DNA from: Candidatus Latescibacterota bacterium
Lineage (GTDB): Bacteria; Latescibacterota; UBA2968
Direction: 5' to 3'
Length of the DNA: 64,000 nt
Assembly (NCBI GenBank): GCA_965204745.1
Contig: OZ242010.1
Span: 5,283,461 to 5,347,460, forward strand
The notes below the pieces were generated by a model, which had not been told where the DNA came from, searched no databases, and saw only the letters and a list, made by a program, of their open reading frames with translations. Position numbers and translations under genes: made by a program. Shown here in pieces: positions 5,774-40,035 of the stretch (positions are counted from its first letter, which is position 1; every line of letters starts with the position of its first letter).

Positions 5774-5801
5774 TTGACTCTTTTGGCAGAAGTCCTATAT
5801 A
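5774..5801 (+). promoter_or_regulatory. Sigma70-type promoter (-35 TTGACT, 16-nt spacer, -10 TATATA) for the sigma-factor gene
   Basis: TTGACT at 5774-5779 and TATATA at 5796-5801, about 30 nt upstream of the proposed GTG start. Confidence 0.35.
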
Positions 5802-5833
5802 TCGCAAAACCCAATGCCTCTCACTCCCCCTTC

Positions 5834-8301: not shown

Positions 8302-8366
8302 GGGAATCTCCTCTGATCGAAAAAAAGTCACTAGGTTCTGTTGACATTTAGGAGCAAAGCAACATC

Positions 8367-8700
8367 GGGACCTACCCCCCTAGCCCCCCTTCCTTAGAGG
8401 AAGGGGGGAACGCGGATGGGTTTTGCGAGGGGGACCTACCCCCTAGCCCCGTTACTCGCTACGCTTCGTTGTAGGCTACGCCTGTGCCTGCGAGGAAGGG
8501 GGAATGACGAGAGGTTTTGCGAGGGGATGGTGTGAGGGATTTTTAATCGCTTTATGCCCTCGGTCAATGCCATCAGAGCAACTAGAGATATAAGCCATCA
8601 AAGGGACTTTACTCCCCTTTCCTCGTAGGAAAGGGGCCGGGGGATAGGTCCCCTCGCGCAACGCCATCAGAGCAACCTAAGCCATCAAAGGACCAAACGC
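8367..8700. repeat. Composite GC-rich palindromic intergenic repeat cluster (family C, MITE/REP-like), two partial copies
   Basis: Contains terminal motif GGACCTACCCCC(T)AGCCCC. Perfect hairpins cccccttcc-ttaga-ggaaggggg and ccctttcc-tcgta-ggaaaggg. Submodule gtaggctacgcctgtgcct. Homologous to 10266-10343, 23391-23820 and 28872-29050. Confidence 0.7.
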
Positions 8701-10117: not shown

Positions 10118-10361
10118 AATTAAGAGTAGAAAGCGAGTAAGAAGCAAGCCGCAACCCATCATCCAAAGACATGAACGAGTCATCCATTATAGAATCGCCC
10201 TTGAATTTGTCTTAAAACGAACGATGGATGCCCCTCCTCCTGCTCTTCCCCGCAACGGAGAGATGTTATTCCCCCCTTGTATCTTCCTCGTAGGCACAGG
10301 CGTAGCCTACAACGAAGCGTAGCGAGTAACGGGGCCAGGGGGGTAGGTCGTAAAAAGTAAA

Positions 10362-10418: not shown

Positions 10419-10613
10419 TTAGGTACCAAAGCTATCGGCGGAGATGAAGCAATCGTCGAATCCAATCTCGCCATCGCCATCGCCATCGCACCGGGGGTCA
10501 TATCGCTCCTGGCCGAGTCGCGAGCCGAACTTGCTGGCAAAGGTCAAGAAGTCGGCGAAATTCACATCGCCATCGCCATCTTCATCTGTGGCGGTCAGGG
10601 AACAGGCTTTCAT
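10419..10613 (-). CDS. Small dockerin-domain ORF (64 aa), 4-nt ATGA overlap with stop of giant gene; possibly the displaced C-terminal dockerin of the giant protein
   Basis: Two canonical dockerin Ca-binding segments: TDEDGDGDVNFADFLTFASKFG and DGDGDGEIGFDDCFISADSFG. No signal peptide. ATG at 10613-10611 overlaps the TGA at 10612-10610. Confidence 0.45.
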   Translation of the reverse strand: MKACSLTATDEDGDGDVNFADFLTFASKFGSRLGQERYDPRCDGDGDGEIGFDDCFISADSFGT

Positions 10614-13600
10614 TGGAAGTGGGAGTCGGGATAGAGGCTTCGGATGTAGGGTTCAATGGCTTGAGCGGTCGTGCGCGTAGCATTTTGCTCAATGACGTTC
10701 CCTCTGAGGAGGGCCTCGTTCCGGAAGAAGAGGACGTATCGAATGATCAGGATTATATCCGAGAACAGCCTCACATCGCCATCGCCATCCACATCGAGAA
10801 TGTTCTGATTGACCAACGTGTCGAGGTAGGGTTCAATTTCTTGAGCGGTCGTGCGCGTGGCAGTTGGCTCGATGACGTTCCCTCTGAGGAGGGCCTCTTC
10901 CCGGAAGAAGAGGACATATCGAATGACCAGGATTATATCCGAGAACAATCTCACCCGGCCATCGCCATCCACATCCAAGTTGGCACTCGAGGTTTCGTCA
11001 TCGATAATCGTCCCTGTGCCTTGCGCCGTGCTTATGGTCGCATTGGTCGCACTGCTCAGCGTCACGATCACGGTCTCGTTCTGCTCATCATCCGAGTCGT
11101 CGGTCACAGAAACAGGGATGGTCTGGATGGTATCGCCTACCGTGAAGGTCAGGGTCCCCGCGGTAAGCGCGGTGTAATCCGTCCCCGAAGTCGCGGTGCC
11201 CGTGCCCGCGTCTGCATACCCCACTGTCACTTGTGCCGTGTGCGCCGGGCGTAGGTACACCCGAAAGGTTAGGGTCGCGCCGGTCGCGCCTTCAATCACG
11301 CTTGGCGAACCGATACTCAGCGCAGGCATGCCATCGTCATCGATAATCGTCCCTGTGCCTTGCGCCGTGCTTATGGTCGCATTGGTCGCACTGCTCAGCG
11401 TCACGATCACGGTCTCGTTCGGCTCATCATCCCCGTCGTCGCTCACAGAAACAGCGATAGTCTGGCTGGTCGTGCCCGCCGCGAAGGTCAGGGTTCCTGC
11501 GGTAAGTGTGGAGTAATCCGTCCCCGAAGTCGCGGTGCCCGTGCCCGCGTCTGCATACGCCACCGTCACCTCCTTGCCGCTCACCGCATTCAATCTAACG
11601 GTGAACGTCAGGGCAGTGCCCTCAACCGCACTCGGCGAACTGATCGAGAGCCTCGGTTGCGGGTCATCATCGGTGATCGTTATTGCAGTCGGGAGGACCA
11701 CACTGCCCTGGGCGTTGGCTGATACAACGGACACGGTCACGTCGCGATTAAGTTCGTCTCGGGTGTTGTCCACCGCTGTGATGACCACCGTATCCGACGC
11801 GTTCGCGGTTTGCCCTGCCGCGATGGTGATCGTCGAATCCATCCCCACCGTGTAAGCACCGGTCACAGGGCGCACCGTGATCGTCGTCGCCGTGCTCCAC
11901 GACCGTGTCAGCGTCGCGGTCACGGTACTCATCCCGCCGCTTTCCGAGATCGACGAGGGCGTCAGGGTCAACGTCACTACCGCGGGTTGGAGTTGAAATT
12001 GCACGGTGGTGTCCATGCCGGCATACTTCAAGACCGGATACTGATCCGCCGCGCCAAAGGTCCACGGATCGTCTTTGCCCACTGCGTCGCCCGTGTTGGT
12101 ATCGCTGTCCACATTTAGGTTCCAGTTGTAGTAGGTGTCGCTGTTGGTGGCACCGTAAGTGCTCGGGCTCTGGAGATCGCGGGTGGTCTTGCCCCCGGCA
12201 ATGCCGCTCCGGTCACTGTCCCAGTAGCTATTGGTCACTGTGCCAGATGTGCTACCCACCAACCCGCCTTTCGTGCCGTCACCAGTGACCTGACCTGTCG
12301 CATAACTGGCCGTCACTTCACCGCTACTCTCGAGGCGCCCCACCAACCCGCCTTTCGTGCCGCTCCCAGTAACCGTGACCGCGCCCGTCGCATAGGACGC
12401 GATAATCGTCCCGCCGTTCTGCCACCCCACCAGACCACCGACCCAGAAATTGGCCCCACTCCCTAAGGCCGTCACAGCCGCAACGGAATAGCTAGCACTG
12501 ATGCGGCGGTTGGCACCGGTATGAGAATGCCCCACCAGACCGCCCAAGCCGTAACTGCCAGACCCCCGAACGCGACCGGTGACATAACAACCCGTGATGG
12601 CACCCCCGCGCTGATTGCCGGTGAGTCCTCCCACGGCGAGGTTGCCTCTGACATCCACATTGCGGAGCCCAAGACCGGAAACAGTGCCCGTGATATCCCG
12701 GAACAGCCCAACATCATTCTGACCGCCACGGTTGATATACAGGTTGGAGATCGTCTTGTTATTGCCCTTGAGCGTACCGGTGTAAGTCCCGAGGGGTTGC
12801 CAACCCGCGCTGCCATTCCAGTAGGTGGCGTCTGCTGAGGTGATTTCGTCGTCGCCATTCTCGTCAAAGTTGAGGTTGTTGAGCAGTTCGTAGCCGGTGC
12901 AGGTCCCAGAAGGGCAACCCATCCGGACATTGCTGGTGGTGTCGCGGTTGGGAAAGGCGGCGTTGTAGTTCATGGTATCACTATCGGCGACGATCCCATC
13001 GCCGTTGAGATCCCAGCGGATGGCATGCAGTTGTGCCAGCGTCTTAATGTCGATGAGGCCATCGCCATCCCTGTCGTAATTGATCCCCGGGGGCGTGCCC
13101 ATGACCTCGTCCGAGGGCGTGCTATCGGTCCCACCTGCCAGGGTGGCAAGGACGCGCACTGTGTAGGGCGTCCCTATCGTCAGGTTCTCTATCGTGTAGG
13201 TCGTGGTGCTGCCTCCAGAGACCGTCTCCTGGCGAGAAGAGGTGTTGTAGCTTTGTCCACCGGACTTCCACTGCACCTTGTAGCCCGTCGCGCCGGTTGC
13301 CTCGGTCCAAGCCACAATGAGTTGGCCCGGCCCAGGCGTCACGCGCACATTGGTGGGTTTATTTGTCGCCAAGGTCACCATGACTGCGTCCGAAGGAGCG
13401 CTGTCGGCTACATTGATATTGGTACTCGTGGCGATGACGCGAATCGTGTAAGTCGTCCCTGCGGTCAGCCCAGAAATTTTGTGGATCGTGGTGCTCCCGC
13501 CAGCGATTGTGGCTTGCCCGTGCGTGGCCAACGCCAGATCGGCGGTGGGATAAGTCGCTACCCCGGATTTCCACTGCACCTTATACCCAGTTGCATCGTT

Positions 13601-16600: not shown

Positions 16601-17983
16601 ATTGGCATAGCTGGCCGCGATGACGGTATTATTACCGTTTGATTCACCCGCTAAACCGCCCACATCGTGACCAGTACCCTCAACGCGACCCGTGACATAA
16701 CAGCCCAGGATGCGACCACCCACCTGATTACCGACCAACCCACCCACTTGATTTCTGCCTCTTACATTGACACTTTTCAGCCCCAGACCGGAAATGTTGC
16801 CGCTGACACGGCCGAACAGCCCAACATCATCCTGACCACGGTTGATGTGCAGGTTGGAGATGGTCTTGTTATTGCCCTTGAACGTGGTTGAGTAGGTGCC
16901 TCCGATGGGCGACCAGTTGGGGTAGGTGTCGGCAGAGGTGACGCTCCCGCTCCCGTCGGTGTCGAAATTTAGGTTGTTGAGCAGTTCGTAGCCGGTGCAT
17001 GTCCCGGAAGGACAACCCATCCGGACGTTGCTGGTGGTGTCGCGGTTGGGAAAGGCGGCGTTGTAGTTCGTGATATCACTATCGGCGACGATCCCATCGC
17101 CGTTGAGATCCCAGCGGATGGCATGCAGTTGCGCCAGCGTCTCAATGTCGATGAGGCTATCGCCATCGCTGTCGTAATTGAACCCTTGGGGCGTGCCCAT
17201 GACCTCGTCCGAGGGCGTGCTATCCATCCCACCTGCCAGGGTAGCAAGGACGCGCACGGTGTAGGTCGTGCCAAAAGTCAGGTTCTCTATCGTATAGGTC
17301 GTGGTGCTCCCTCCAGAGACCGTCTCCTGGCGAGAAGAGGTGTTGTAGGTCTGTTGTCCGGACTTCCACTGCACCTTGTATCCCGTCGCACCGGTTGCCT
17401 CGGTCCAAGCCACAATGAGTTGGACCGGCCCCGGCGTCACGCGCACATTGGTGGGTTTGGTTGTCGCCGAGGTCACCATGACTTCCTCCGAGGGGGCACT
17501 GTCGGCTAAATTGATATTGGTACTCGTGGCGATGACGCGAATCGTGTAGGTCGTCCCTGCGGTCGGCCCAGAAATTTTGTAGGTCGTGGTGCGCCCGTCA
17601 GAGATTGTGGCTTGCCCGTGCGTGGCGGCCTGAGAATCGGAGGTGGGATAAGTCGTTGCCCCGGATTTCCACTGCACCTTATACCCGGTGGCATCGTCCA
17701 CCACATTCCAAGTCACGGTCAGCGTGTCCACCTTCGCCGCCACCATCACAGCCGGACTGCCCAGCAAGGCGAGAACGCCGGTCTGCTCTGCCGAGGGTGT
17801 GCTATCGGGCGCACCGGTCTTGGTGGCAATGACACGCACTGTGTAGGTCGTCTCGCCGAGCAAGTTGGGGATCTTGTAGCGCGTCCCCGTGACGATCCCC
17901 TGACGCGAGGCGGCGTAGCTCTGATCGCCGGATTTCCACTGCACCTTGTACCCCGTCGCATAACTCGACGCACGCCAACGCAC
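10610..17983 (-). CDS. Giant cell-surface protein, C-terminal portion: 3x[Ca-loop+GLUG+3 FN3] modules, 3 Calx-beta domains, 2 dockerin-like repeats
   Basis: Repeated YDSDGDGLIDIKTLAQLHAIRWDLNGDG (DxDxDG loops). GLUG motifs (VGGLVG/AGGLVG/IGGLIG recurring roughly every 20 aa). FN3 repeats (PPGIPTSVTVT...GYKVQWKSG...TTYTVRVIATKTG). Calx-beta (LSISSPSAVEG...TDYSTLTAGTLTFAAGTTSQTIAVSVSDDGDDEPNETV). C-terminal DVDGDGRVRLFSDIILVIRYVLFF x2. Confidence 0.75.
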   Translation of the reverse strand: MRWRASSYATGYKVQWKSGDQSYAASRQGIVTGTRYKIPNLLGETTYTVRVIATKTGAPDSTPSAEQTGVLALLGSPAVMVAAKVDTLTVTWNVVDDATGYKVQWKSGATTYPTSDSQAATHGQATISDGRTTTYKISGPTAGTTYTIRVIATSTNINLADSAPSEEVMVTSATTKPTNVRVTPGPVQLIVAWTEATGATGYKVQWKSGQQTYNTSSRQETVSGGSTTTYTIENLTFGTTYTVRVLATLAGGMDSTPSDEVMGTPQGFNYDSDGDSLIDIETLAQLHAIRWDLNGDGIVADSDITNYNAAFPNRDTTSNVRMGCPSGTCTGYELLNNLNFDTDGSGSVTSADTYPNWSPIGGTYSTTFKGNNKTISNLHINRGQDDVGLFGRVSGNISGLGLKSVNVRGRNQVGGLVGNQVGGRILGCYVTGRVEGTGHDVGGLAGESNGNNTVIAASYANAEVSGGRIHDGAGGLVGRLKATVIASYAIGPVTGNFRVGGLVGRLDISPSSVSTSYATGTVTGRRHDSSQLGGLIGFAQSGVSHSYWDRESSGRSSSARGTSQTTSALRSETDYNGIYANWNVDVDGRPGSDNPWTFGAADQYPVLKYAGMDTTAQFAMQPPGIPTSVTVTVQRDTLDVRWTAPSNATGYKVQWKAGAQNYAVSREAITTDTRYKIANLIGGTTYTVRVIATKTGVRDGRPSAEQTGVPLLGSPTGVEVNAKVDTLTVTWNAANGATGYKVQWKSGSETYSAADEESATHGQATISGGRTTIHKISGLTPGTTYAIRVIATRTNVADSAPSEEVITLLTLGSPTGVEVSAKVDTLTVTWNAVPLATGYKVQWKSGSETYPAADEESATHGQATIAGGRTTIHKISGLTPGTTYAIRVIATHTTTAGNSAPSEEVMVTSATTKPTNVRVTPGPGQLIVAWTEATGATGYKIQWKSGVQSYNTSDRQTTVSGMSTTTHTIENLTFGTTYTVRVTATLAGGTDSTPSDEVMGTPQAINYDSDGDGLIDIKTLAQLHAIRWDLNGDGVVADNDTMTYNAAFPNRVTTSSGRMGCPSGTCTGYELLNNLDFDENGDGEITQADATYWNNGDGWLPIGTDAARYTGDFKGNGYTIDNLTINRPSVVEVGLFGNVDTASRIESVGITNASVAGGEYAGALVGALRGTVVACYSTGNISATTRTAGGLVGWTPNAITSSYSTASVSGPEHVGGLLGASQGGTVTNSYSTGVVTRSSGTLTTIGGLIGSGTGGTASYWDTQTSGCTSGGSNGCTTSAGGSGVTGLTTSALISPTTYGATSNDTYYGWNANLDGQPGNDDPWTFGAANQYPVLKYAGMDTTVQYNLQPPGIPTSVTVTPKADTLDVRWTAASYATGYKVQWKAGAQSYAASRQGIVTGTRYKIPNLLAETTYTVRVIATKTGAPDGMPSAEQTGVPALLGSPAVMVAAKVDTLTVTWNAVNDATGYKVQWKSGVATYPTADLALATHGQATIAGGSTTIHKISGLTAGTTYTIRVIATSTNINVADSAPSDAVMVTLATNKPTNVRVTPGPGQLIVAWTEATGATGYKVQWKSGGQSYNTSSRQETVSGGSTTTYTIENLTIGTPYTVRVLATLAGGTDSTPSDEVMGTPPGINYDRDGDGLIDIKTLAQLHAIRWDLNGDGIVADSDTMNYNAAFPNRDTTSNVRMGCPSGTCTGYELLNNLNFDENGDDEITSADATYWNGSAGWQPLGTYTGTLKGNNKTISNLYINRGGQNDVGLFRDITGTVSGLGLRNVDVRGNLAVGGLTGNQRGGAITGCYVTGRVRGSGSYGLGGLVGHSHTGANRRISASYSVAAVTALGSGANFWVGGLVGWQNGGTIIASYATGAVTVTGSGTKGGLVGRLESSGEVTASYATGQVTGDGTKGGLVGSTSGTVTNSYWDSDRSGIAGGKTTRDLQSPSTYGATNSDTYYNWNLNVDSDTNTGDAVGKDDPWTFGAADQYPVLKYAGMDTTVQFQLQPAVVTLTLTPSSISESGGMSTVTATLTRSWSTATTITVRPVTGAYTVGMDSTITIAAGQTANASDTVVITAVDNTRDELNRDVTVSVVSANAQGSVVLPTAITITDDDPQPRLSISSPSAVEGTALTFTVRLNAVSGKEVTVAYADAGTGTATSGTDYSTLTAGTLTFAAGTTSQTIAVSVSDDGDDEPNETVIVTLSSATNATISTAQGTGTIIDDDGMPALSIGSPSVIEGATGATLTFRVYLRPAHTAQVTVGYADAGTGTATSGTDYTALTAGTLTFTVGDTIQTIPVSVTDDSDDEQNETVIVTLSSATNATISTAQGTGTIIDDETSSANLDVDGDGRVRLFSDIILVIRYVLFFREEALLRGNVIEPTATRTTAQEIEPYLDTLVNQNILDVDGDGDVRLFSDIILIIRYVLFFRNEALLRGNVIEQNATRTTAQAIEPYIRSLYPDSHFQ

Positions 17984-20900
17984 ATCCTAAGGTGTCCACT
18001 TTTGGCGTTACGGTCACACTTGTCGGAATGCCCGGCGGTTGCAAGTTATACTGCACGGTGGTGTCCATGCCGGCATATTTCAACACGGGATATTGATCTG
18101 TCTTGCCAAAGGTCCACGGCTCGTCGTTGCCGGGTTGTCCGTCGAGGTTGGCGTTCCAAGTGGAGAAGATGAGGGTGTAGCCGGTGGGGGATTGGAGCGC
18201 GCTGGTCGTCTGGCCGGTAACGCCGCTACCGCCGGCGCTGGTTGTGCAACCGTTGCTACCGCCGGATGTACAGCCGCTGGTTTGGGTGTCCCAGTAGCTT
18301 GCGGTGCCGCCCGTGCCGGAGCCTATCAACCCGCCGACGAGTGGAGAACTGCCGGTGCCGATAACCGTGCCGATGGAGTAGGAGTTCGTTACGGTGCCGC
18401 CTTGGCTTGCTCCCAGCAGTCCGCCGACGTGCTCAGGGCCGCTGACGGATGCGGTGGAGTAGCTTGAGGTAATCGCGTTGGGCGTCCATCCGACCAGTCC
18501 GCCGGCGGTCCTAGTCGTCGCCGAAACGCTGCCGGTGGAGTAGCAGGCGACGACTGTGCCGCGCAGGGCACCGACCAGAGCGCCGGCATATTCGCCTCCC
18601 GCAACACTGGCGTTGGTTATGCCGACGGACTCGATGCGGGAGGCGGTGTCGGCATTGCCGAATAATCCCACTTCAACGACGGCGGGTCGGTTGATGGTCA
18701 GGTTGTCGATAGTGTAGCCGTTGCCCTTGAAATCGCCGGTGTATCTGGCGGCGTTTGTGCCGATGGGTAGCCAGCCGTCGCCGTTGTTCCAGTAGGTGGC
18801 GTCTGCTGAAGTGATTTCGCCGTCGCCATTCTCGTCAAAGTCGAGGTTGTTGAGCAGTTCGTAGCCGGTGCAGGTCCCGGAAGGGCAACCCATCCGGACG
18901 TTGCTGGTGATGTCTCGGTTGGGAAAGGCGGCGTTGTAGGCGGTCGTATCGCTGGTTGAGGCACTTGCGTCTATGGCACCATCGCCGTTGAGATCCCAGC
19001 GGATGGCATGCAGTTGCGCCAGCGTCTCAATGTCGATGAGGCCATCGCCATCGCCATCGTAATCGATCCCTTGGGGCGTGCCCATGACCTCGTCCGAAGG
19101 CGTGCTATCGGTCCCACCTGCCAGGGTAGCAGTGACGCGCACCGTGTAGGTCGTGCCAAAAGTCAGGTTCTCTATCGTGTAGGTCGTGGTGCTTCCTCCA
19201 GAGACCGTCTCCTGGCGATCAGATGTGTTGTATGCCTGTTGCCCGGACTTCCACTGTATCTTGTATCCCGTCGCGCCAGTTGCCTCGGTCCAAGCCACAA
19301 GGAGTTGGAAATGCCCCGGCGTCACGCGCACATTGGTGGGCTTGTTTGTCGCCGCAGTTACCATGACTTCCTCCGAAGGGTCACTGTCGGCGATATTGAG
19401 ATTGGTACTCGTGGCGATGACGCGAATCGTGTAAGTCGTCCCTGCGGTCACATTGGAGATTTTGTAGGTCGTGGTGCTCCCGCCTGCGATGGTGGCTTGC
19501 CCGTGCGTGGCGGCGGACGTCAGATCGGAGGTGGGATAAGTCGCTACCCCGGATTTCCACTGCACCCTATACCCGGTTGCGTTGGACACCGCATTCCAAG
19601 TCACGGTCAGCGTGTCCACCTTCGCACTCGCCATCACAGGCGGACTGTCCAGCGTGGACACGATAAAGATGGATTGCTCTGCTGAGGGTGTGCCATCGCG
19701 GGCACCGGTCTTGGTGGCAATGACACGCACTGTGTAGGTCGTCCCAAACGTCAAGTTGGGAATCTTGTGGCGCGTCCCCGTGGTGGTGGCCTCACGCGAG
19801 GCGGTATCGTAGCTCTGCGTGCCGGATTTCCACTGCACCTTGTACCCCGTCGCATAACTCGCCGCAGTCCAACGCACGTCCAAGGTGTCCGCTTTTTGCG
19901 TTACTGTCACACTTGTCGGAATGCCCGGCGGTTGCATTGCAAATTGCGCGGTGGTGTCCATGCCGGCATACTTCAAGACCGGATACTGATCCGTCTTGCC
20001 AAAGGTCCACGGATCATCGCCGCCCGGTTGCCTGTCCAGGTTCAGGTCCCAATTCATTATGTAGATGCCGGTATAACCCGTGGGGCCTTGGAGACCGGCG
20101 GTGGTCTGGGGAGCACCGCGTCCGGTGTCGCTACGTTTAGAGGTGGTACTATCGTAGTAGCTATGGGTAATTGTTGAACTACTGTTGAGACCGACCAGGC
20201 CACCAACCTGTGAAGGAGCACTGACCGGGCCGATGGCATAGCTACCGGTTATCGTGCTGGAATAGAAGTTGGCACCGACCAGGCCACCGGTTCTATAGTT
20301 GCCGCTGACTACGCCGGTGGCATAGCTGGCGCGTATGATGGCCTTCGGGCTACCAAAGTTGCCGTGGAAGCCCACCAGGCCGCCGACGTAAGTAGTGCCG
20401 CTGACTGCGCCGGTAGCATAGCTAGCGGTTATCGTGCCGCGACTCCAGCCCACCAAGCCGCCGATGCTTATATTAGACCCAGTGACGTCCACCTCGGAAC
20501 GACAGGCGGTAATGGTCGAGCTACCGTGCCGCAGCCAGCCCACCAAGCCGCCGCTTCGTGCATACCCGCTGACCTGTCCGGTAACGCGGATGTGCATGAG
20601 ATGGAGCCTGTTGCCTTCGCCAACAAGGACTGCGGTTTCAGAATTGCCGGTCACATTGGCGTTCACCAGGCTCAAATTGCGGATCGTACCGTCCGCGGCA
20701 AAGCCGAACAGCCCGATGTCGTCGGCAGAGCGGTTGATAAACAGGTTGGAGATGGTATAGTCGTTGCCGTGGAAGGTGCCGGTGTATTTCGTCGCACTGT
20801 TGCCGATGGGCGCCCAGCCTGCGCCGCTGTTCCAGTAGGTGGCGTCTGCTACGGTGATTTCGTTGTCGTTGTTCTCGTCGAAGTTGAGGTTGTTGAGCAG

Positions 20901-23060
20901 TTCGTAGCCGGTGCAGGTTCCGGAAGGGCAACCCATCCGGCCGCTACTGGTGGTAACGCGGTTGGGAAAGGCGGCGTTGTAGTTCATGGTATCATTATCG
21001 GCGACGACCCCATCGCCGTTGAGATCCCAGCGGATGGCATGCAGTTGCGCCAGCGTCTTAATGTCGATGAGGCCATCGCCATCGCTGTCGTAATTGATCG
21101 CGTAGGGCGTGCCCATGACCTCGTCCGAGGGCGTGCTATCGGTCCCACCTGCCAGGGTAGCAGTGACGCGCACCGTGTAGGTCGTGCCAAAAGTCAGGTT
21201 CTCTATCGTGTAGGTCGTGGTGCTTCCTCCAGAGACCGTCTCCTGGCGATCAGATGTGTTGTAGCTTTGTCCACCGGACCTCCACTGCACCTTGTATCCC
21301 GTCGCGCCGGTTGCCTCGGTCCAAGCCACAATGAGTTGGGCCGGCCCCGGCGTCACGCGCACATTGGTGGGTCTGGTGGTCGCCAAGGTCACCATGACTG
21401 CGTCCGAGGGGACACTGTCGGCTAAATTGATATTGGTACTCGTGGCGATGACGCGAATCGTGTAGGTCGTCCCTGTGGTCAGCCCAGAAATTTTGTGGAT
21501 CGTGGTGCCCCCGCCAGCGATGGTGGCTTGCCCGTGCGTGGCGGACTGCTCATCGGAGGTGGGATAAGTCGCTACCCCGGATTTCCACTGTACCTTATAC
21601 CCGGTTGCGTTGGACACCACATTCCAAGTCACGGTCAGCGTGTCCACCTTCGCCGCCACCATCACAGCCGGACTGCCCAGCAAGGCGGGAACGCCGGTCT
21701 GCTCTGCCGAGGGTGTGCCATCGGGCGCACCGGTCTTGGTGGCAATGACACGCACTGTGTAGGTCGTCTCGCCGAGCAAGTTGGCGATCTTGTAGCGCGT
21801 CCCTGTGACGGTCTCCTCACGCGAGGCGGCGTAGCTCTGATCGCCGGATTTCCACTGCACCTTGTACCCTGTCGCATAACTCGCCGCAGTCCAACGCACG
21901 TCCAAGGTGTCCGCTTTTGGCGTCACGGTCACACTGGTCGGCCTGCCCGGCGGTTGCAAGTTATACTGCACGGTGGTGTCCATGCCGGCATATTTCAAGA
22001 CCGGATACTGATCCGCCGCGCCAAAGGTCCACGGATCATCGTCGCCGGGTTGTCCGTCGATGTTGGCGTTCCAGGTGGAGAAGATGAGGGTGTAGTCGGT
22101 GGGGGATTGGAGCGCGCTGGTCGTCTGGCCGGTAACGCCGCTACCGCCGGCGCTGGTTGTGCAACCGTTGGTGCCGCCGGATGTACAGCCGCTGGTTTGG
22201 GTGTCCCAGTAGCTTGCGGTGCCGCCCGTGCCGGAGCCTATCAACCCGCCGATGAGTGGAGAACTGCCGGTGCCGATAACCGTGCCGATGGAGTAGGAGT
22301 TCGTTACGGAGCCGCCTTGGCTTGCTCCCAGCAGTCCGCCGACGTGCTCAGGGCCGCTGACAGATGCGGTGGAGTAGCTTGAGGTAATCGCGTTGGGCGT
22401 CCATCCGACCAGTCCACCGGCGACCCTAGTCGTCGCCGAAACGTTGCCGGTGGAGTAGCAGGCGACGACTGTGCCGCGCAGGGCGCCGACCAGAGCGCCG
22501 GCATATCCGCTTCCTGCAACACTGGCGTTGGTTACGCCGACGGACTCGATGCGGGAGGCGGTGTCAGTGGTGCCGAATAATCCCACTCCAGAGACGGCGG
22601 GGCGGTTGATGGTCAGGTTGTCGATAGTGTAGCCGTTGCCCTTGAAATCGCCGGTGTATCTGGCGGCGTCTGTGCCGATGGGGACCCAGCCGTCGCCGTC
22701 GTTCCAGTAGGTGGCGTCTGCTGAGGTGATTTCGCCATCGCTGTTCTCGTCAAAGTTGAGGTTGTTGAGCAGTTCGTAGCCGGTGCAGGTCCCGGAAGGG
22801 CAACCCATCCGGCCGCTACTGGTGGTGACGCGGTTGGGAAAGGCGGCGTTGTAGGCGGTCGTATCGCTGGTCGTGGCACTTGCGTCTATGGCACCATCGC
22901 CGTTGAGATCCCAGCGCATGGCATTGAGCTGGGCGAGGTTGGCTACATCAATGTAGCCGTCGTTGTTCATGTCGTAGTCGGTTTGGGCAAAAGCCGGCCC
23001 CGATGCCACCAGCATGGCCAGCGCGACCAGGGCCAACAAGTGAGCGTAGCGGGGCATCAT
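17984..23060 (-). CDS. Giant cell-surface protein, N-terminal portion (signal peptide + 3 modules); same gene as 10610-17983 interrupted by a 1-nt frameshift near 17988
   Basis: ATG at 23060 preceded by GAGGGGGA SD. Signal peptide MMPRYAHLLALVALAMLVASGPAFA. Module architecture identical to the downstream part. The listed ORF's upstream extension (23061-23717) is read-through of the leader/repeats and is not coding. Confidence 0.7.
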
Positions 23061-23254
23061 TTTGTCCCCCTCTCGAGGGGGGGGGGGGGGGGGTACACTG
23101 TACTGATCATCGTAACAGGCTGTTTTGCAATAAAATAGAACCGCACTCCAAGACGAGGATGGGCGATATGAACGCCACTTTTCGCGGTGGGACAGGCTGG
23201 AAAAACATAGCGCCAAATGAGGTTCAAACAGCGGCTGAAAATGGCGGTGATCAT
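23057..23254 (-). CDS. Leader uORF (65 aa) ending in polyproline encoded by the poly-C tract; stop overlaps giant-gene ATG (ATGA)
   Basis: AAAGGAGG SD 6 nt upstream of ATG 23254. Reads through 17 consecutive C (PPPPP). TGA at 23059-23057 overlaps ATG 23060-23058. Confidence 0.3.
   Translation of the reverse strand: MITAIFSRCLNLIWRYVFPACPTAKSGVHIAHPRLGVRFYFIAKQPVTMISTVYPPPPPLERGTK
23077..23093. repeat. Homopolymeric G17 (C17 on coding strand) tract ~15 nt upstream of giant-gene start codon
   Basis: Directly visible run of 17 G between 23077 and 23093. Confidence 0.9.
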
Positions 23255-23336
23255 CTGAAGCCTCCTTTGCAAAGCTGTCGCACAGACCGGGTGCGACTTT
23301 TTCTTCGCGTTCAAAATCGCAATGGTGAACGGGAAA

Positions 23337-23366
23337 AATATAGGGAATCGCGCTCTTGTTTGTCAA
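23337..23366 (-). promoter_or_regulatory. Sigma70-type promoter for giant gene (TTGACA-18nt-TATATT), implying ~270-nt leader
   Basis: Minus-strand TTGACA (23366-23361), 18-nt spacer, TATATT (23342-23337). Confidence 0.35.
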
Positions 23367-23390
23367 GCGGTAAAATGACGATGGGAATTG

Positions 23391-23820
23391 GGACCTACCC
23401 CCTGGCCCCCTTCCTAAGAGGAAGGGGGAATGGCGAGAGGTTGTGCGAGGGATTGTGTGTAAGGGTTTTTGGATTTTCATGGCGTGATCCATTCGCCCAA
23501 AGCCATCAAAACAGCCCTGGATGCAAACCTTCAAGAAAGCCATGCGCTCCCCCTTTCCTTGTAGGAAAGGGGGCCGGGGGGATAGGTCCTGCGATGAAGG
23601 GGGAATGGCGAAAGGTTTTGCGAGGGATTGCGCGAGGGGGGTTTGGGGTTCTATGGCGTGATCCATTCGCCCAAAGCCATCAAAACAGCCCTGGATGCAA
23701 ACCTTTAAGAAAGCCATGCGCTCCCCCTTTCCGCGTAGGCACAGGCGTAGCCTACAATGAGCGAAGCGAATAACGGGGGCCGGGGGGATAGGGCTATGGC
23801 GACAGGGCGTGCGAAGGACA
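23391..23820. repeat. Family C composite repeat, two tandem full copies with ~75-nt conserved core
   Basis: Core catggcgtgatccattcgcccaaagccatcaaaacagccctggatgcaaacctt(c/t)aagaaagccatgcgctccccctttcc duplicated. Ends gtaggcacaggcgtagcctac...ggggccggggggataggg. Same family as 8367-8700 and 28872-29050. Confidence 0.75.
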
Positions 23821-24090
23821 CAGCGGAGTGGGAACGATGAAGCGGTGGTGGGGCGGTGGGTGGATCTCGCCTCTTACTTCTTGCCTCTTACTTGGGGATA
23901 GGGCTTGCGGTAGGGTGGTGTGGGGTAATCCGCGCAATCTGCGTAATCCGTTTAATCCGCGATTCAGACACGGCGGGGCGGATGGACAAGCACAGGGCAT
24001 CGCCCCTACACACACTGCTCGTTTTTTGTGTTTTTGTGCCTTTGAACTGGCTGTTGCCAGTTGTACCCCGCTCGTGGCTAAACTTCCATC

Positions 24091-25083
24091 TCACCTCTTG
24101 CTGGGCGGATGGGGAAACGGGCGGGGACTGACCACTGCATTTGCCTCTCCCGTCTTGCCTCTCCCGTCTTGCCTCTTCCCTCTCTCCTCTGCCCATGCCC
24201 GCAGGGGAATGTCATCTCCATTTTTTGTGAGCCAGTATTGAGACGAGGGGTGAAACTCGGATTCCGGGCCGAGGGGGTCGCCGCCGGATGCCAGCGCGCC
24301 GAGCAACTGTTGTCGAATGGGCGAACTGCGTTGGATGAGTGCCTCGTCTTGCGCGATGTAATCCGTTGGGCGCAGCCAGCGGTAGTGGTAGCCCACATGC
24401 ATGATCTTCCGGGTTTTCCGCGACAAGTTCGGCCCGACGCAGTGCCAGACCGCTGTGCGCCACAACACGGCAGACCCGGCGCACAACTTGAGTTCCACGG
24501 CCTCTTCGGGGCTGACCACGCGCCCGGCGTCGCGCAGTTCCTCGGGCTTGCGCTTGTGGCTACCCGGCACCAACCACAAGTTGCCGCAGTTGGACTCGGT
24601 CATGTCGTAGAGCACGTAAAAAATCTTGATCTCCATGAACGGCAACCGCCCGTCCAGCGAGGGCGCGAGAAACAGGGTGTCGCTCGCCAAATCCGGATGC
24701 CACGCGACATTGCGATACCCGGCTTCTTGATCCGCGCCCTTGCCCACGCCCACGTCGCCGGGCGTCATGCCTTCGGGATACGGCGGGCGATAATCCAAAT
24801 GCGTGGTTCTGATCTGGATGTTCCACCCAATCGCATCCACCACCAAAGGCAACATGCGCGGGTGGTCGATCAAGTCGAGAAACGCCTCGTGTTGCGACAA
24901 GGCATTCCGCACGGCAAACGGATCACTGGGGCACAAACCCTCGGCCGCCCGAACCCGCTCGGCCACCTCGTCAATCGCCAACAAGAGCCGATCCACCTCG
25001 GCCTGCGCCAAAAAATCCTCGAAAACGACAAATCCCTTTTCCTCAAAATCCCGCGCCTGCTCCTCGGTCATTGCAAGGGCCAT
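24091..25083 (-). CDS. Phytanoyl-CoA dioxygenase (PhyH) family Fe(II)/2-oxoglutarate oxygenase
   Basis: Family-typical N-terminus (MTEEQARDFEEKGFVVFEDFL), WHPD motif and double-stranded beta-helix core. The 3' end of the ORF runs into repeat families B/D, so the C-terminal ~45 aa is repeat-derived. Confidence 0.65.
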   Translation of the reverse strand: MALAMTEEQARDFEEKGFVVFEDFLAQAEVDRLLLAIDEVAERVRAAEGLCPSDPFAVRNALSQHEAFLDLIDHPRMLPLVVDAIGWNIQIRTTHLDYRPPYPEGMTPGDVGVGKGADQEAGYRNVAWHPDLASDTLFLAPSLDGRLPFMEIKIFYVLYDMTESNCGNLWLVPGSHKRKPEELRDAGRVVSPEEAVELKLCAGSAVLWRTAVWHCVGPNLSRKTRKIMHVGYHYRWLRPTDYIAQDEALIQRSSPIRQQLLGALASGGDPLGPESEFHPSSQYWLTKNGDDIPLRAWAEERGKRQDGRGKTGEANAVVSPRPFPHPPSKR

Positions 25084-25111
25084 CGCGTTCCCCCTTCATT
25101 GCGAAAATGGA

Positions 25112-25468
25112 TTATTCATCCGCATCGGGCACCTTGCAGCAATTAGGCAACTGCTGATAGGCTGTGGAATCGGCCTGTTTGTCGTTGGCCGCATACCCCG
25201 ATTGGACGATTGCCTGCTCCAATGCGGGCACATCGGTCACTTTGGCGTCGAATGTCACCGTTGCGGTTTTGGCATTCAGCTCGACGCGCACATCTTGCAC
25301 GCCCTCGACCTGTTTCACCGCTGTTTCCACGGTGTTGACGCACACCGCGCATTGCAGCGTCGGCAACTTCACTTCGGCGGTTGTGGCTTCCGACTTTGCC
25401 GAACAGCCGATATGGGCCGCGGCGCCGATTGCACACGCGATCACCCAGGCAAAAATGCGAACCTTCAT
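25112..25468 (-). CDS. Heavy-metal-associated (HMA) domain lipoprotein (periplasmic metallochaperone-like)
   Basis: Lipoprotein signal ...AAAHIGC. HMA-like ferredoxin fold with metal-binding CAVC motif (LQCAVCVNTVETAVK). Located immediately downstream of the HME-RND pump gene. Confidence 0.55.
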   Translation of the reverse strand: MKVRIFAWVIACAIGAAAHIGCSAKSEATTAEVKLPTLQCAVCVNTVETAVKQVEGVQDVRVELNAKTATVTFDAKVTDVPALEQAIVQSGYAANDKQADSTAYQQLPNCCKVPDADE

Positions 25469-25505
25469 GATACACCTCCAAAAAAATATGGGTTGAGGCG
25501 CGGTC

Positions 25506-28702: not shown

Positions 28703-29050
28703 CGGTGAAAGGTGAGAGGTGAAAGGTGAAAGGTGAGAGGGCCGCCCAACAGCCCATCCGCAAGTAAGAGGTGAGACGGGAGAGGTGAGAGGGCCGCCCA
28801 ACAGCCCATCCGCAAGTAAGAGGTGAGACGGGAGAGGTGAGAGGGCCGCCCAACAGCCCATCCGCAAGTAAGGGGGAATGGCGAGAGGTCTTCGGGGTTC
28901 ATGGCGTTATCCATTCGCCCAAAGCCATCAAATCCGCCCTGGATGCAACCCTTTAAGAAAGCCATGCGCTCCCCCTTTCCTCGTAGGCACAGGCGTAGCC
29001 TACAATGAGCGAAGCGAATAACGGGGGCCGGGGGGATAGGGCTATGGCGG
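28703..29050. repeat. Tandem ~52-nt units (family B, x2.5) plus one family C core copy in cusA upstream region
   Basis: Unit gggccgcccaacagcccatccgcaagtaagaggtgagacgggagaggtgaga repeated head-to-tail. Followed by the conserved core ...ccattcgcccaaagccatcaaa...gtaggcacaggcgtagcctac. Confidence 0.75.
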
Positions 29051-29080
29051 TAGGCCGGTTGGGGAACGCGGTTGGGGGTA

Positions 29081-31397: not shown

Positions 31398-33143
31398 GTG
31401 GTCATCACAAAACAAAAGGCAATGGGGGTACATTTTACCCCTCCTGAATTGGCCCGGTTTGTAGCGCGGAGAATTATTAACGCATTCTCTTCCAATGCCT
31501 CAAAGCACCTCAGGGTTCTCGATCCCGCTTGTGGAGATGGCGAATTGCTTTTGGCATTTGCCGAAATGCTTCCCGACTCATTTCAAGGCCGATGTACTTT
31601 GGTAGGTATCGAGTCAGACTGTTCATCATTGCATCGCGCGAGCGAACGATTGGCGCACTTGCCTCAAAAAGAAGTCGAACTCCACGAAGACGATTTTCTA
31701 GCGTTCTACGAAAATCAGCAGAAACGCCCCGATTTGTTTCATCTCCCTTCAAACGGTCATTCGCTTGTAAAACCCGCCGATGTCATTATTGCAAATCCCC
31801 CTTATGTAAGGACACAGATACTCGGCGCCGCGAAAGCACGAGAATTATCGAACCTTTTTGGTTTGAAGGGGCGGATCGATCTCTATCAGGCATTTCTGAT
31901 TGCAATGACCGATCATTTGTCTCCGGGGGGAATGATCGGCGTCATTACTTCAAATAGGTTTCTTTTTACCCGAGGTGCAAGTGTTGTGCGAGAATTTTTG
32001 GATCGTCAATACCATATCACTGAAATTTTTGATCTTGGAGATACGAAACTTTTTGACGCTGCGGTACTGCCCGCGGTGTTTATAGGACAGCGCAAATCCG
32101 ACGGTGAATTACCCGACAAAAAGTTACAAAAATTTGTGAAAATTTATGAAAATCTGAACGGCAATGACAATTCCAAACAAAATGTAGAGTACTCTGACTC
32201 CGTGTTCAAAGTTCTCGAAAGCGAAGCCATTGGCACGTATCAAATCCAGAGTAAATGCTTCAATATCTCCCGAGGTCTTCTTTCTATCCCAGCCTCATCC
32301 TCCGAACCGTGGCGCATGGTCACGGCAGGGGAAAGTGCTTGGCTCAAAAGGATAAACGCTCGGGCCTTTTATCGCATTGGAGATATTTTGAAAGTTCGAG
32401 TGGGTATTAAGACCACGGCGGATGAGGTGTTCATCAGAGAAAATTGGGACGCGCTTTCCAAAACGCGAAAGCCAGAAAAAAAACTCCTTCAATACTTGCT
32501 GTCTCATGGCGATGCGGCCCGTTGGCGTTCTCTAACGAGGAAAGAGGCCCTCAAGCAAGTCTTGTACACTCATGAAGAGAAAAATGGCAGACGTCAGGCG
32601 ATTGATTTATCTGAATATCCACGAGCTAAGGCGTATCTCTCTCTGTATCGAAAGCGTTTGGAAGGCAGAAAATACGTTTTGAAAGCGAAGCGCAATTGGT
32701 ACGAGATCTGGGTACCTCAAAATCCCCATCTGTGGAAACGGCCCAAAATCGTTTTTCCCGATATAAGTTTGGTGCCCAAATTTTTCTATGATGCAGATGG
32801 ATATATCGTCGATGGCAACTGCTACTGGATTCCACTGGAAAACGGAACGGATGAAGAGGTGCTTTTTCTGATACAAGGCGTGGCAAATTCAAAACTCATG
32901 ACGCGCTATCACGACCTTTCATTTAACAACAAGCTCTATGCTGGACGGCGGCGATATTTGACTCAATACGTTCAAAAGTATCCCCTTCCCGATCCAACCA
33001 CCCGCGACGCACAGCAGATTGTCGCTCTGGTCAAAGCGTTGGTATTTTCTGTCTCAGATGATAAATCGCGTGATGAAAAAGAACGAGAATTGGAAATTAC
33101 GGTCGCAAGTGCCTTTGGCGTAGAGCCCGTGTCCGAAATTTAG
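31398..33143 (+). CDS. Type II N6-adenine DNA methyltransferase, gamma class (Eco57I/TaqI-like)
   Basis: Motif I VLDPACGDGELL precedes motif IV IIANPPY. C-terminal target-recognition region. Lower GC than surroundings. Confidence 0.8.
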   Translation: MVITKQKAMGVHFTPPELARFVARRIINAFSSNASKHLRVLDPACGDGELLLAFAEMLPDSFQGRCTLVGIESDCSSLHRASERLAHLPQKEVELHEDDFLAFYENQQKRPDLFHLPSNGHSLVKPADVIIANPPYVRTQILGAAKARELSNLFGLKGRIDLYQAFLIAMTDHLSPGGMIGVITSNRFLFTRGASVVREFLDRQYHITEIFDLGDTKLFDAAVLPAVFIGQRKSDGELPDKKLQKFVKIYENLNGNDNSKQNVEYSDSVFKVLESEAIGTYQIQSKCFNISRGLLSIPASSSEPWRMVTAGESAWLKRINARAFYRIGDILKVRVGIKTTADEVFIRENWDALSKTRKPEKKLLQYLLSHGDAARWRSLTRKEALKQVLYTHEEKNGRRQAIDLSEYPRAKAYLSLYRKRLEGRKYVLKAKRNWYEIWVPQNPHLWKRPKIVFPDISLVPKFFYDADGYIVDGNCYWIPLENGTDEEVLFLIQGVANSKLMTRYHDLSFNNKLYAGRRRYLTQYVQKYPLPDPTTRDAQQIVALVKALVFSVSDDKSRDEKERELEITVASAFGVEPVSEI

Positions 33144-34309
33144 GGGTCGTGAACCGCTCGACCTTCATATTGGTCAAAGAAGCTCATCGGAATCGCCCTT
33201 TGGCATTTGTAGTTCGTACTGGAAACATAAGAGAAATGCTCGCCTAATTTTTCCCCAGGACACAACACAACGCCTGTGACGACACCTGTTTTTTCGTCCG
33301 TCAATGCAATCAGATATCGAATATCCGATGTCGTGAACCCCGGACATGCGGGAACATCTTCCTCGACTCGAGGGCTGTACATACCCAAGTCAATGGTGGG
33401 CGAATCTTGCACTTTGACTTCGAGTGCTTGATTGGGCAAATCGGGATAGCTTCCCATGAGTGGTTCATCCGCACGCGGCATATATCCCAGATACTGGGAA
33501 ATGAGCAGTTCGAGAAATTGCCCTCGGTTTTTGGTGGTAGCCCCCTCAATTGTTGCATTTATCAGACGGACCGCTACTTTCTCTCGCAATATTCGCAGTG
33601 CCAGTACTCGCCCCTGTCTGGGCTTGTCACGCATAGAAGCGCGTGGCCTTTCATAAAGTTGCGAAACCATTGTCGCAACTTTAGCGGTATCTGGATAATA
33701 GAGAATGGGGGGCCGCGTCTCCAAAATTTTCCTGCGTGTTTTATCGGTGATAATGAGTTGATGCTTGATTGTGGGCCTGCTAAATTTTCCGAAATGATCG
33801 ACGATATAATCCGATGATAAGAGGAAAATAGAACGCACTTCGAAGGTATGGGGATCGACGCGCACGATAACGAATCTAACATCTCGGTCACGCAAGTTTT
33901 CCCCAAAAGCGTACTCGATTTGGATACTTTCTCCTACGGGATTTCGATTCCATACTTGGAGATTGTACGCCGCGCCCGTTGTAACGATATAGGTGTCGAT
34001 ATATTCTCGCAGAATCCGCGGTACACCTTTCTTTTTTGGAGGGATGATCGTATAGGAAGCCCGATCACATGGCGGCGGCAACGGGTGTTTTTCAAGTGTT
34101 GCCGCGATCAAATTTCGCATATTCGTGCCGTCGGTTCTCGTTTTCCGCGTCAATGGAAATGAGGTTCCGATCAGCACGCTTAAGCACTCAACGAGGATTT
34201 TAGGCGGTGTGAGCGCGTTTTTATTTTTCGGCGGAATCGTTAAGGGGTTATTCAAAGCGAGCCCCATCTTGAAATGGCGAATGGACTTGTGCAATACCGC
34301 GTATCGCAT
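33140..34309 (-). CDS. Putative type II restriction endonuclease (PD-(D/E)xK)
   Basis: Convergent with the methyltransferase, overlapping by 4 nt. ...YPDLPNQALEVKVQ fits PD-x(n)-E-x-K. Low GC. Start uncertain (34309, 34267 or 34120). The N-terminal ~135 codons of the listed ORF overlap the uxaC-like gene and are rejected. Confidence 0.5.
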   Translation of the reverse strand: MRYAVLHKSIRHFKMGLALNNPLTIPPKNKNALTPPKILVECLSVLIGTSFPLTRKTRTDGTNMRNLIAATLEKHPLPPPCDRASYTIIPPKKKGVPRILREYIDTYIVTTGAAYNLQVWNRNPVGESIQIEYAFGENLRDRDVRFVIVRVDPHTFEVRSIFLLSSDYIVDHFGKFSRPTIKHQLIITDKTRRKILETRPPILYYPDTAKVATMVSQLYERPRASMRDKPRQGRVLALRILREKVAVRLINATIEGATTKNRGQFLELLISQYLGYMPRADEPLMGSYPDLPNQALEVKVQDSPTIDLGMYSPRVEEDVPACPGFTTSDIRYLIALTDEKTGVVTGVVLCPGEKLGEHFSYVSSTNYKCQRAIPMSFFDQYEGRAVHDP

Positions 34310-39775: not shown

Positions 39776-39875
39776 ATACTCCTGAAAAGATGGAAGTTTA
39801 GCCACGAGCGAGGTACAACTGGCAACAGCCCGTTCAAAAACACGAGCGGGGTACAACTGGCGACAGTCCGATCAA
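39776..39875. repeat. Family D dispersed repeat (two tandem copies)
   Basis: gatggaagtttagccacgagcg(a/g)ggtacaactggc(a/g)acag(c/t)cc occurs twice here and in reverse orientation at 24035-24100. Confidence 0.6.
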
Positions 39876-40035
39876 ACAAAGATACAAGAAACCTTTACAG
39901 GCTATCGTCGCGGTGGTGAAAGTAGGGGACTATAATTATAGCCCCCTACGCCATTCAATCTGGGGCATGTTGCGGCACGACCAGGATTTTGATGGCGAGA
40001 AATTCTATCGGATCACCGCGCAAACCCCTTGACCT

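Follow-up and report, generated by a model that had tools for sequence, protein, structure and literature searches.

A poly-C tract in an upstream leader ORF as a candidate phase-variation switch for giant secreted-protein genes of uncultured bacteria

To our knowledge, phase variation through simple repeats has been described almost exclusively in cultivated bacteria that are pathogens or commensals of vertebrates. The classical homopolymer loci include pilC and opc of Neisseria, the poly-G genes of Campylobacter, the poly-C tracts of Bordetella fim and the poly-G tract in the 5' untranslated region (UTR) of Moraxella uspA1; in Bordetella fim, Neisseria opc and porA and Treponema tpr the homopolymer acts at the level of transcription or DNA. 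Such runs are usually 8–15 nt long, lie in the structural gene or in or near its promoter, and switch between two states. At these loci, G/C homopolymers above the slippage threshold accompany genes for surface proteins in bacteria that live with a host. Many of the genes belong to multigene families, and run lengths differ between strains. Surveys of such loci have been published (PMC1891110, PMC5084427 and PMC6321876). In the pil1 locus of Streptococcus gallolyticus the repeat instead sits in a leader-peptide gene, where the number of GCAGA repeats sets the point at which the ribosome stops and hence terminator formation (Danne et al. 2014, PMC3894217). Here, we describe a 64-kb stretch of DNA (contig OZ242010.1; hereafter the window, meaning the whole stretch analyzed) in which a run of 17 cytosines (C17) lies within a 65-codon upstream open reading frame (uORF) directly before a giant gene for a predicted secreted surface protein. 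From the comparative sequence evidence, we put the chances at about even that this leader is phase-variable and translationally coupled to the giant gene.

The run is an extreme outlier in its surroundings, given that every other G or C run in the window is at most 7 nt long and that arithmetic from base composition predicts only about 1e-4 runs of 17 nt or more per window. A preliminary description of the locus had reported a 17-C homopolymer on the coding strand, and it is there, as G17 on the plus strand and C17 on the minus (coding) strand (Table 1). Save for one distance, the anatomy given in that description also stands: the uORF has 65 codons, is preceded by a Shine–Dalgarno sequence (SD; AAAGGAGG) at a spacing of 6 nt, reads the tract as polyproline (ending ...VYPPPPPLERGTK) and stops with a TGA that overlaps the giant-gene ATG as ATGA. 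The distance has to be corrected because the run was said to lie 15 nt before the SD of the giant gene; it ends 2 nt before that G-rich SD and 16 nt before the ATG. The frame of the giant gene itself is likewise open upstream through C17, as far as position 23717. On the same strand, a predicted promoter of sigma-70 type with 11/12 consensus matches lies approximately 80 nt upstream of the uORF, and a hairpin sits between the promoter and the ribosome-binding site (RBS) of the uORF. As in ordinary ATGA/TAATG translational coupling, the uORF stop overlaps the start of the downstream gene and the G-rich SD lies within the last codons of the uORF. However, in ordinary coupled operons the upstream cistron encodes a protein and has a fixed frame, whereas here it is an apparently unconstrained leader whose frame is set by a hypermutable run.

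This geometry bears on the level at which the run could act. In the promoter-spacer switches of Bordetella fim and Neisseria opc/porA the run lies between the -35 and -10 elements or between an activator site and the -10 element. In the window, the promoter is approximately 245 nt upstream of the run and the run is 16 nt from the ATG, and a promoter-spacer switch was rejected on this geometry. A more general switch in transcription or DNA structure would have the run alter the spacing or strength of an internal promoter, or block transcription as a G-quadruplex (G4) or i-motif. The conserved block 5' of the run does hold a weak -35/-10-like pair (RARACA, 18 nt, TACART, then GTA and poly-C), and a G4 could in principle arise from the G17 of the template strand. 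We nevertheless find such a switch highly improbable: the run is not between the -35 and -10 elements, the strong conserved promoter lies far upstream, the 16 nt from run to ATG make a downstream promoter impossible, and the runs of 10–14 nt at other loci (below) are too short for a three-tetrad G4.

The leader is not unique to the window. An exhaustive HMMER search with the 65-amino-acid (aa) uORF peptide found 18 proteins, all but three of which align from match residue 1 (two of those three look unrelated). They fall into three length classes: peptides of approximately 58–71 aa that end in ...PPPP(L)ERGxK, peptides of approximately 90–120 aa, and proteins of 1300–1430 aa (P0260 and P0270) that join leader and giant protein in one frame and have an internal signal peptide. 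A profile search gave at least 65 protein clusters. One peptide, P0273 (65 aa), is 100% identical to that of the window and lies on a contig of 5,482,115 bp; at least ten distinct leader peptides are encoded on this 5.48-Mb contig, and further ones map to contigs of 5.28 Mb and 4.95 Mb. The window itself most likely derives from the 5.48-Mb contig. No extra copies were obtained by blastn of the leader against all collected loci, and leader-pattern scans of JGI metagenomes and viral sequences returned no matches or chance matches alone. We infer that the bearers are uncultured, Chloroflexota-like, probably sponge-associated bacteria.

Six copies could be compared as DNA, namely that of the window and five retrieved ones (L065–L069), and they share one layout. 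The -35 hexamer is TTGACA in four copies and cTTGCC in two, the -10 hexamer is of the form TAnnnT in all six, and a 5' UTR of approximately 65 nt follows. The spacer varies in sequence, but GGAGG, its 6-nt distance from the ATG and the ATG itself are the same in all six copies. Within the uORF, a first conserved nucleotide block (GCCATTTTTCGCCGTTGTTTGAAC) is followed by an indel zone and a second block (ATTGCAAAACAG..GATCRGTACARTGTA), which leads into a poly-C run of 17, 24, 28, 15, 17 or 22 nt. After the run every copy has a G-rich SD, ATGA and a signal peptide, with 15–18 nt from the end of the run to the ATG. The uORFs have 55–72 codons among cassettes, read the run as 3–9 prolines and end 5–6 codons past it. 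The arrangement that had been proposed as something to look for upstream of paralogous giant genes is thus present, in at least ten leaders on a single contig, in at least 65 clusters and in six copies that look alike as DNA. The genes behind the cassette vary in domain content (FN3/GLUG, Calx-beta, He_PIG, dockerin), which argues that the cassette is a transferable 5' control region of genes for giant secreted proteins, as far as predicted domains and signal peptides tell. The association is with a multigene family of giant proteins with predicted signal peptides, as at the classical loci. In three further database entries (P0265, P0268 and P0325) the leader is joined straight to the signal peptide and the run and main start are deleted, through either recombination or deletion at the run or misassembly.

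Conservation within the leader is of the frame and of the signals around it. Among the six copies, substitutions are spread almost evenly over the codon positions (233:226:253), and the uORF peptide has no match in Pfam or NCBIfam; on both grounds, conservation of the leader is not at the level of the protein. In the stretch from one conserved block to the other, indels come in multiples of three, and there are at least six in-frame length classes compared with three singleton peptides in which the frame is broken. To the question raised in the preliminary description of whether the uORF frame is conserved, the comparison thus answers that SD, 6-nt spacer, ATG, open frame and ATGA overlap all appear to be kept. 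With SD, spacer and ATG invariant downstream of a conserved promoter, translation of the leader is predicted from sequence, and the pattern fits a regulatory leader in which ribosome traffic would matter and the product would not. The block 5' of the run may reflect an RNA helix, the context of an arrest peptide or an internal promoter. It also contains a GATC, 9–10 nt 5' of the run (23103–23106 in the window), that recurs in five of the six copies (the window, L065–L067 and L069).

The central proposal, that changes in tract length would shift the uORF frame and its stop, holds in silico for all six copies. In the window, a run length n with n mod 3 = 2 places the uORF stop on the giant-gene start codon, n mod 3 = 0 fuses the uORF in frame with the giant ORF, and n mod 3 = 1 lets the uORF overrun 110 nt into the giant gene, out of frame. 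Simulated run lengths reach stop-on-start and in-frame fusion in every copy. In the third frame the uORF of L068 stops 13 nt short of the ATG, and those of the other five copies overrun the start by 107–1094 nt. As assembled, four copies are in the coupled frame (the window, L066, L067 and L069), L065 is fused (recorded as P0353, 2056 aa) and L068 is in its early-stop state. ATGA itself is present in all six, and the frame that makes uORF stop and giant-gene start overlap is currently present in the four coupled ones. These four have upstream, run and downstream lengths mod 3 of (2,2,1), (2,1,2), (2,0,0) and (0,1,1), so that the coupled frame is not simply one fixed length passed on from copy to copy.

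Length differences are also found between close relatives. An invariant tract had been named as a result that would count against a switch; the tract is not invariant, ranging from 15 to 28 nt in the six copies and differing between near-identical leaders of separate assemblies. P0346 and P0347 have 7 and 5 prolines, P0280 and P0334 have 9 and 7, and among another set of near-identical leaders P0332 (on the 5.48-Mb contig of P0273) is fused, whereas P0336 and P0333 end in ...PRGV, a tail that decodes to a stop a few nucleotides before the ATG. Orthologous loci of Dehalococcoidia, discussed below, likewise differ in run length. Fused and overrun forms are on record as predicted proteins (P0260, P0270 and P0262), and all three states exist in public assemblies, near-identical leaders included. 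Copies with decayed (1–2 prolines) or interrupted runs are mostly fixed in the coupled frame. Overall, approximately 50 of approximately 95 peptides are in the coupled state, a share inflated by ascertainment through ORF calls: most family members were found via called ORFs, which favors intact short uORFs, and frame-state counts from peptide lists are biased, given that overlapping uORFs are lost in gene calling and fused forms are masked by clustering. Long homopolymers are error-prone on all sequencing platforms and the giant gene carries an unexplained frameshift, both of which could point to an artefact of sequencing or assembly, or to a mutational oddity of no selective consequence. We give this almost no credence, given that the homologous position carries such a run, with the same strand orientation, in independent assemblies of several samples and genomes, and that long homopolymers decay fast without selection.

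We propose that the run is the part that varies in a conserved 5' leader cassette, which occurs in multiple copies and would control genes for giant secreted surface proteins. One promoter would give an mRNA with the uORF as its first cistron, translated from a canonical RBS, and ribosomes that finish the uORF would be delivered onto the giant-gene start, whose G-rich SD could otherwise pair with the C run. A homopolymer of 15–28 nt would slip during replication, so that run length drifts, presumably reversibly. With the uORF stop on the start codon the genes would be coupled, which is the probable default and probably the ON state; in-frame fusion would bury the signal peptide behind approximately 70 residues; and in the third state uORF ribosomes would pass the start by 107–1094 nt out of frame and occlude it. 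At least ten copies per genome could then produce stochastic, heritable and combinatorial variation of giant surface proteins, and the polyproline stretch would add a dependence on elongation factor P (EF-P) and prolyl-tRNA. The candidate phase-variation switch of the preliminary description is in this sense supported by the comparative sequence tests.

The N-terminal module of the giant protein, used as a query, gave 57 loci, mostly from metagenome-assembled genomes (MAGs) of Dehalococcoidia, with several paralogues per genome. The MAGs have names typical of marine-invertebrate symbiont projects, Candidatus Poriferisodalis among them. A C run of 10–24 nt is present in 20 of the 57 loci and an equivalent G run in none; apart from L034, these 20 loci have the run on the coding strand, either before the gene or at its 5' end. 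Where the gene 5' end is in view, approximately 18–19 of 44 loci have the run, all of them in MAGs of Dehalococcoidia or Candidatus Poriferisodalis. These leaders are unrelated in sequence to that of the window, and the 18–19 coding-strand runs in unrelated leaders point to sense-strand poly-C near the 5' end of giant secreted-protein genes as a recurrent feature of symbiont-type genomes, judged from the assembled sequences. The exception, L034, has a C19 at 5801–5819 within the coding sequence for a Pro/Thr-rich linker in a SAR202 protein, possibly an intragenic frameshift hotspot or an assembly problem.

The read-out may differ between leader types. One group, the class-A leaders (L001–L012), has conserved flanks (...TTCTA-Cn-GCAATACCACTGCA...) with a poly-C run of 13–24 nt and an invariant GCAATACCACTGCA after it; run lengths among orthologues are 21/23/18, 13/22/24, 15/20 and 24/18, with near-identical flanks. 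One orthologue pair (L010 and L011, positions 2640–2870) is identical from approximately 40 nt before the ATG, and L011 is without the entire poly-C leader. Four other loci (L016, L033, L038 and L042) have the run 16–35 nt before an ATGA start and a uORF that reads through it. In L013 (3888–4000), a C15 lies in the 5' coding region, where MPIIRFSFYS and polyproline come first and the signal peptide follows in a different frame; there is no start codon after the run and before the signal peptide, the two are currently out of frame, and the locus looks like a classical intragenic switch in the OFF frame. The window could in principle work in the same way, with the product starting at the uORF ATG, the fused frame ON (its longer N-terminal region resembling that of some giant adhesins) and the other two OFF, and the fused proteins of 1300–2056 aa in databases (P0260, P0270 and P0353) would then be the functional form. 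For the cassette this is very unlikely in our judgment: each copy retains a G-rich SD, an ATG and a canonical signal-peptide n-region right after the run, the leader peptide is without constraint at the protein level, and the coupled frame predominates, decayed-run copies included. A signal peptide behind approximately 70 residues is also unlikely to work, which counts against the fused frame as the ON state.

The pil1 system is the closest precedent in logic, given that there, too, repeat number sets the leader frame, the position at which the ribosome stops and so the expression of the downstream gene, as we propose here. It differs in that its repeat is the pentanucleotide GCAGA rather than a C homopolymer read as polyproline, and in that the ribosome disrupts an intrinsic terminator, whereas the window would act through ATGA coupling, fusion or overrun. 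We searched the minus strand of the window from the run up to the ATG and found no intrinsic terminator; none was found after the run in the class-A leaders of Dehalococcoidia either. The sole hairpin between run and ATG (CCCCCU/CGAG/AGGGGG) has no U tract and overlaps the SD. A pil1-type attenuator was therefore rejected for the window and the class-A leaders, and the cassette, which is moreover multi-copy and from a different phylum, is not filed as a pil1 member because the defining terminator feature fails.

The same structural searches bear on whether the run acts as RNA irrespective of uORF translation, masking one or both SDs or serving as a platform for Rho (rut-like), S1 (as a standby site) or a poly(C)-binding protein. 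The C is always on the sense strand, in the six family copies and in approximately 19 unrelated loci, and such an element would tolerate a variable distance to the start codon, as is seen in the class-A leaders. RNAalifold on the six copies pairs the run with both SDs, the minimum free energy (MFE) fold of the window places the 6-bp hairpin CCCCCU/CGAG/AGGGGG over the main SD, and an anti-SD hairpin predicted for L016 (z = -2.7) has the run as its loop. However, the predicted run–SD pairs are all invariant and support no more than composition, with no net covariation in the leader (covariation term unfavorable, +3.58), and the window folds no better than shuffles (z = -0.28). These folds are compatible with SD masking and prove nothing. 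Two further RNAalifold predictions are a long-range helix that joins the conserved blocks and a stem at the position equivalent to that of the 5' UTR hairpin of the window. In the helix, 92% of cells are paired compared with 39–53% in slid controls, with no two-sided (compensatory) changes among the six copies; of the stem, one or two of the six sequences break or lack most pairs. An RNA element also does not explain the invariant RBS and ATG of the uORF, its open frame or the ATGA overlap, and we consider it distinctly unlikely as the full account.

The polyproline reading of the run raises a physiological alternative, in which ribosomes would stall on the prolines whenever EF-P or prolyl-tRNA is limiting and so tune a costly 12-kb gene, with length variation incidental. 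In one variant a ribosome that stalls on reaching the 3' end of the run would cover the SD and ATG of the giant gene; in the other, uncoupling of translation from transcription would expose C-rich RNA to Rho. Leader ORFs with consecutive proline codons are known from Salmonella mgtCBR, and the 15–18 nt from run to ATG in all six copies are about as far as a ribosome reaches downstream. Every copy with an intact run encodes 3–9 consecutive prolines, and an attenuator would explain both the specificity for the coding strand and the Dehalococcoidia leaders of inconsistent frame geometry. EF-P-dependent pauses are reported to break the coupling of transcription and translation and to allow Rho to act (PMC5021804). 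The cassette resembles Salmonella mgtP/mgtL in having a short leader ORF with consecutive Pro codons at which stalling could alter downstream expression. The Salmonella leaders, however, have 3 Pro codons in mixed sequence and alternative RNA hairpins, whereas here 5–9 prolines come from a mutable pure C run, and neither a terminator nor an alternative-hairpin architecture was found downstream of the run. Copies with decayed runs of 1–2 prolines persist, and the strict ATGA overlap with compensating flank lengths points to frame-dependent termination. A run of 15–28 nt also inevitably varies, which makes an attenuator compatible with a switch rather than exclusive of it. As the primary explanation of the window we regard the attenuator as unlikely; neither it nor the RNA element excludes the phase-variable coupled leader, and both fit the class-A leaders better.

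Several points weigh against a phase-variable coupled leader. ORF-call ascertainment makes the coupled excess and the frame conservation partly selection artefacts, and the run lengths are a long-read consensus that is possibly off by 1. The hairpin that would sequester the SD is short and no more stable than its shuffled counterparts, and RNAalifold gives no net covariation. On a long C run tRNA-Pro, and possibly RNA polymerase, is prone to slip, so that frames may be mixed whatever the DNA length, and ribosomal or transcriptional slippage could blur a switch based on that length. The two conserved nucleotide blocks of the leader are left unexplained by the frame model. Finally, the frame model does not explain every poly-C leader, because the class-A runs are 100–270 nt from the giant-gene start and their uORF stops have no consistent geometry.

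Judged against the classical loci, most defining features of a simple-repeat contingency locus appear to be present: a homopolymer well above the slippage threshold (C17 here and C15–C28 in the homologues), length polymorphism among close relatives, and a family of predicted surface-protein genes. The cassette differs in that its run, at 15–28 nt, lies in a separate upstream cistron and encodes polyproline, in that three states are predicted rather than two, and in its high copy number in an uncultured lineage of non-pathogens. We found no description in the literature of poly-C leaders in Chloroflexota or sponge symbionts.

The giant gene itself consists of two overlapping ORFs joined by a +1 frameshift near 17985 (Table 1). 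Compared with the internal repeats of the gene, the minus strand appears to have one extra G in 'TTAGGATG' at 17975–17995, which would be either a real +1 frameshift or an assembly error. The C-terminus of the protein (10610–10900, minus strand) carries two dockerin-like repeats (DVDGDG.VRLFSDIIL.IRYVLF) after Calx-beta domains, which suggests anchoring of the cohesin–dockerin type. A dispersed element of approximately 174 nt with G/C-rich hairpins, similar to repetitive extragenic palindromic (REP) sequences or miniature inverted-repeat transposable elements (MITEs), occurs twice in tandem upstream of the leader (23412–23739) and again in several other intergenic regions of the window (28874–29057, 8364–8651, 10284–10347 and 39788–39892). 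Rfam gave no match at E <= 1 in 22000–25500 and none at gathering score in the whole window. GC content falls to 0.47 at 32001–34000 compared with approximately 0.57 elsewhere in the window.

Further upstream, beyond the 174-nt repeat, lies a PhyH-family gene whose best named homologue is from a Caldilineaceae MAG (75% identity). Exact look-ups of this PhyH and of P0273 gave no record. Two sequences, one ENA scaffold and one Logan contig (L060 and L061), are from the same species, judged by a PhyH that is 98% identical, and they end 234 and 23 nt past the PhyH stop, respectively, breaking in the repeat-rich intergenic region before the leader. In the next-closest genomes (L062–L064) the genes after PhyH encode a GlnR-like regulator and a gamma-glutamyltranspeptidase, and the giant gene is not at this site; the unit of leader and giant gene is therefore variable genome content.

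Table 1 Features of the leader and the giant gene in the window
Feature	Position	Strand	Evidence or remark
Sigma-70-like promoter of the leader transcript	23337..23366	-	TTGACA 23366-23361, 18 nt, TATATT 23342-23337
5' UTR hairpin just upstream of the uORF RBS	23277..23297	-	GUCGCAC...GUGCGAC; RNAalifold stem at equivalent position
uORF SD, AAAGGAGG	23261..23268	-	6 nt before ATG; GGAGG, 6-nt spacer and ATG invariant in 6/6
Leader ORF (uORF), 65 codons and TGA, MITAIF...STVYPPPPPLERGTK	23057..23254	-	ATG 23254-23252, TGA 23059-23057; homologue searches
Conserved nucleotide block within the uORF, codons 4-11, GCCATTTTCAGCCGCTGTTTGAAC	23222..23245	-	Six-copy alignment
Conserved nucleotide block abutting the run on its 5' side, ATTGCAAAACAG..GTTA..GATCAGTACAGTGTA	23094..23131	-	Six-copy alignment
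Poly-C run C17, polyproline in the uORF frame	23077..23093	-	Homologues C15, C17, C22, C24, C28
Giant-gene G-rich SD, GAGAGGGGGA	23065..23074	-	Pairing with the 3' end of the run possible (CCCCCU/CGAG/AGGGGG)
ATGA, giant-gene start overlapping the uORF stop	23057..23060	-	Giant-gene ATG 23060-23058; ATGA in 6/6 copies
Giant-protein signal peptide, MMPRYAHLLALVALAMLVASGPAFAQT	22980..23060	-	Predicted N-terminus
Giant gene, first ORF, 1752 aa	17802..23060	-	Repeated modules: EF-hand/dockerin-like motif, GLUG, three FN3 domains
Giant gene, continuation past the +1 frameshift, 2457 aa	10610..17983	-	FN3, GLUG, Calx-beta, C-terminal dockerin-like repeats

For genome annotation, fused, split or 'hypothetical 60-aa' calls at these loci would have to be treated with caution, as they may be states of one switch, and the conserved leader could serve as a marker for locating such giant genes. 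If the phase-variable coupled leader is correct, stop/start coupling of a leader ORF would be a third read-out for repeat-based switches, and the cassette would offer a natural case of polyproline stalling, EF-P and homopolymer slippage all acting on the same nucleotides. Very large adhesin-like proteins are thought to mediate interactions with hosts or phages, and the cassette would place a switch that is recognizable from sequence on proteins of this kind in uncultured symbionts of marine invertebrates. More tentatively, and at somewhat less than even confidence, we suggest that sponge-type Chloroflexota, and convergently other symbionts, carry a previously undescribed cassette that provides at least ten three-state switches per genome (coupled, fused or overrun), gated by EF-P and tRNA-Pro, and that varies the symbiont surface in an animal host. 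Such symbionts would then diversify their surface stochastically.

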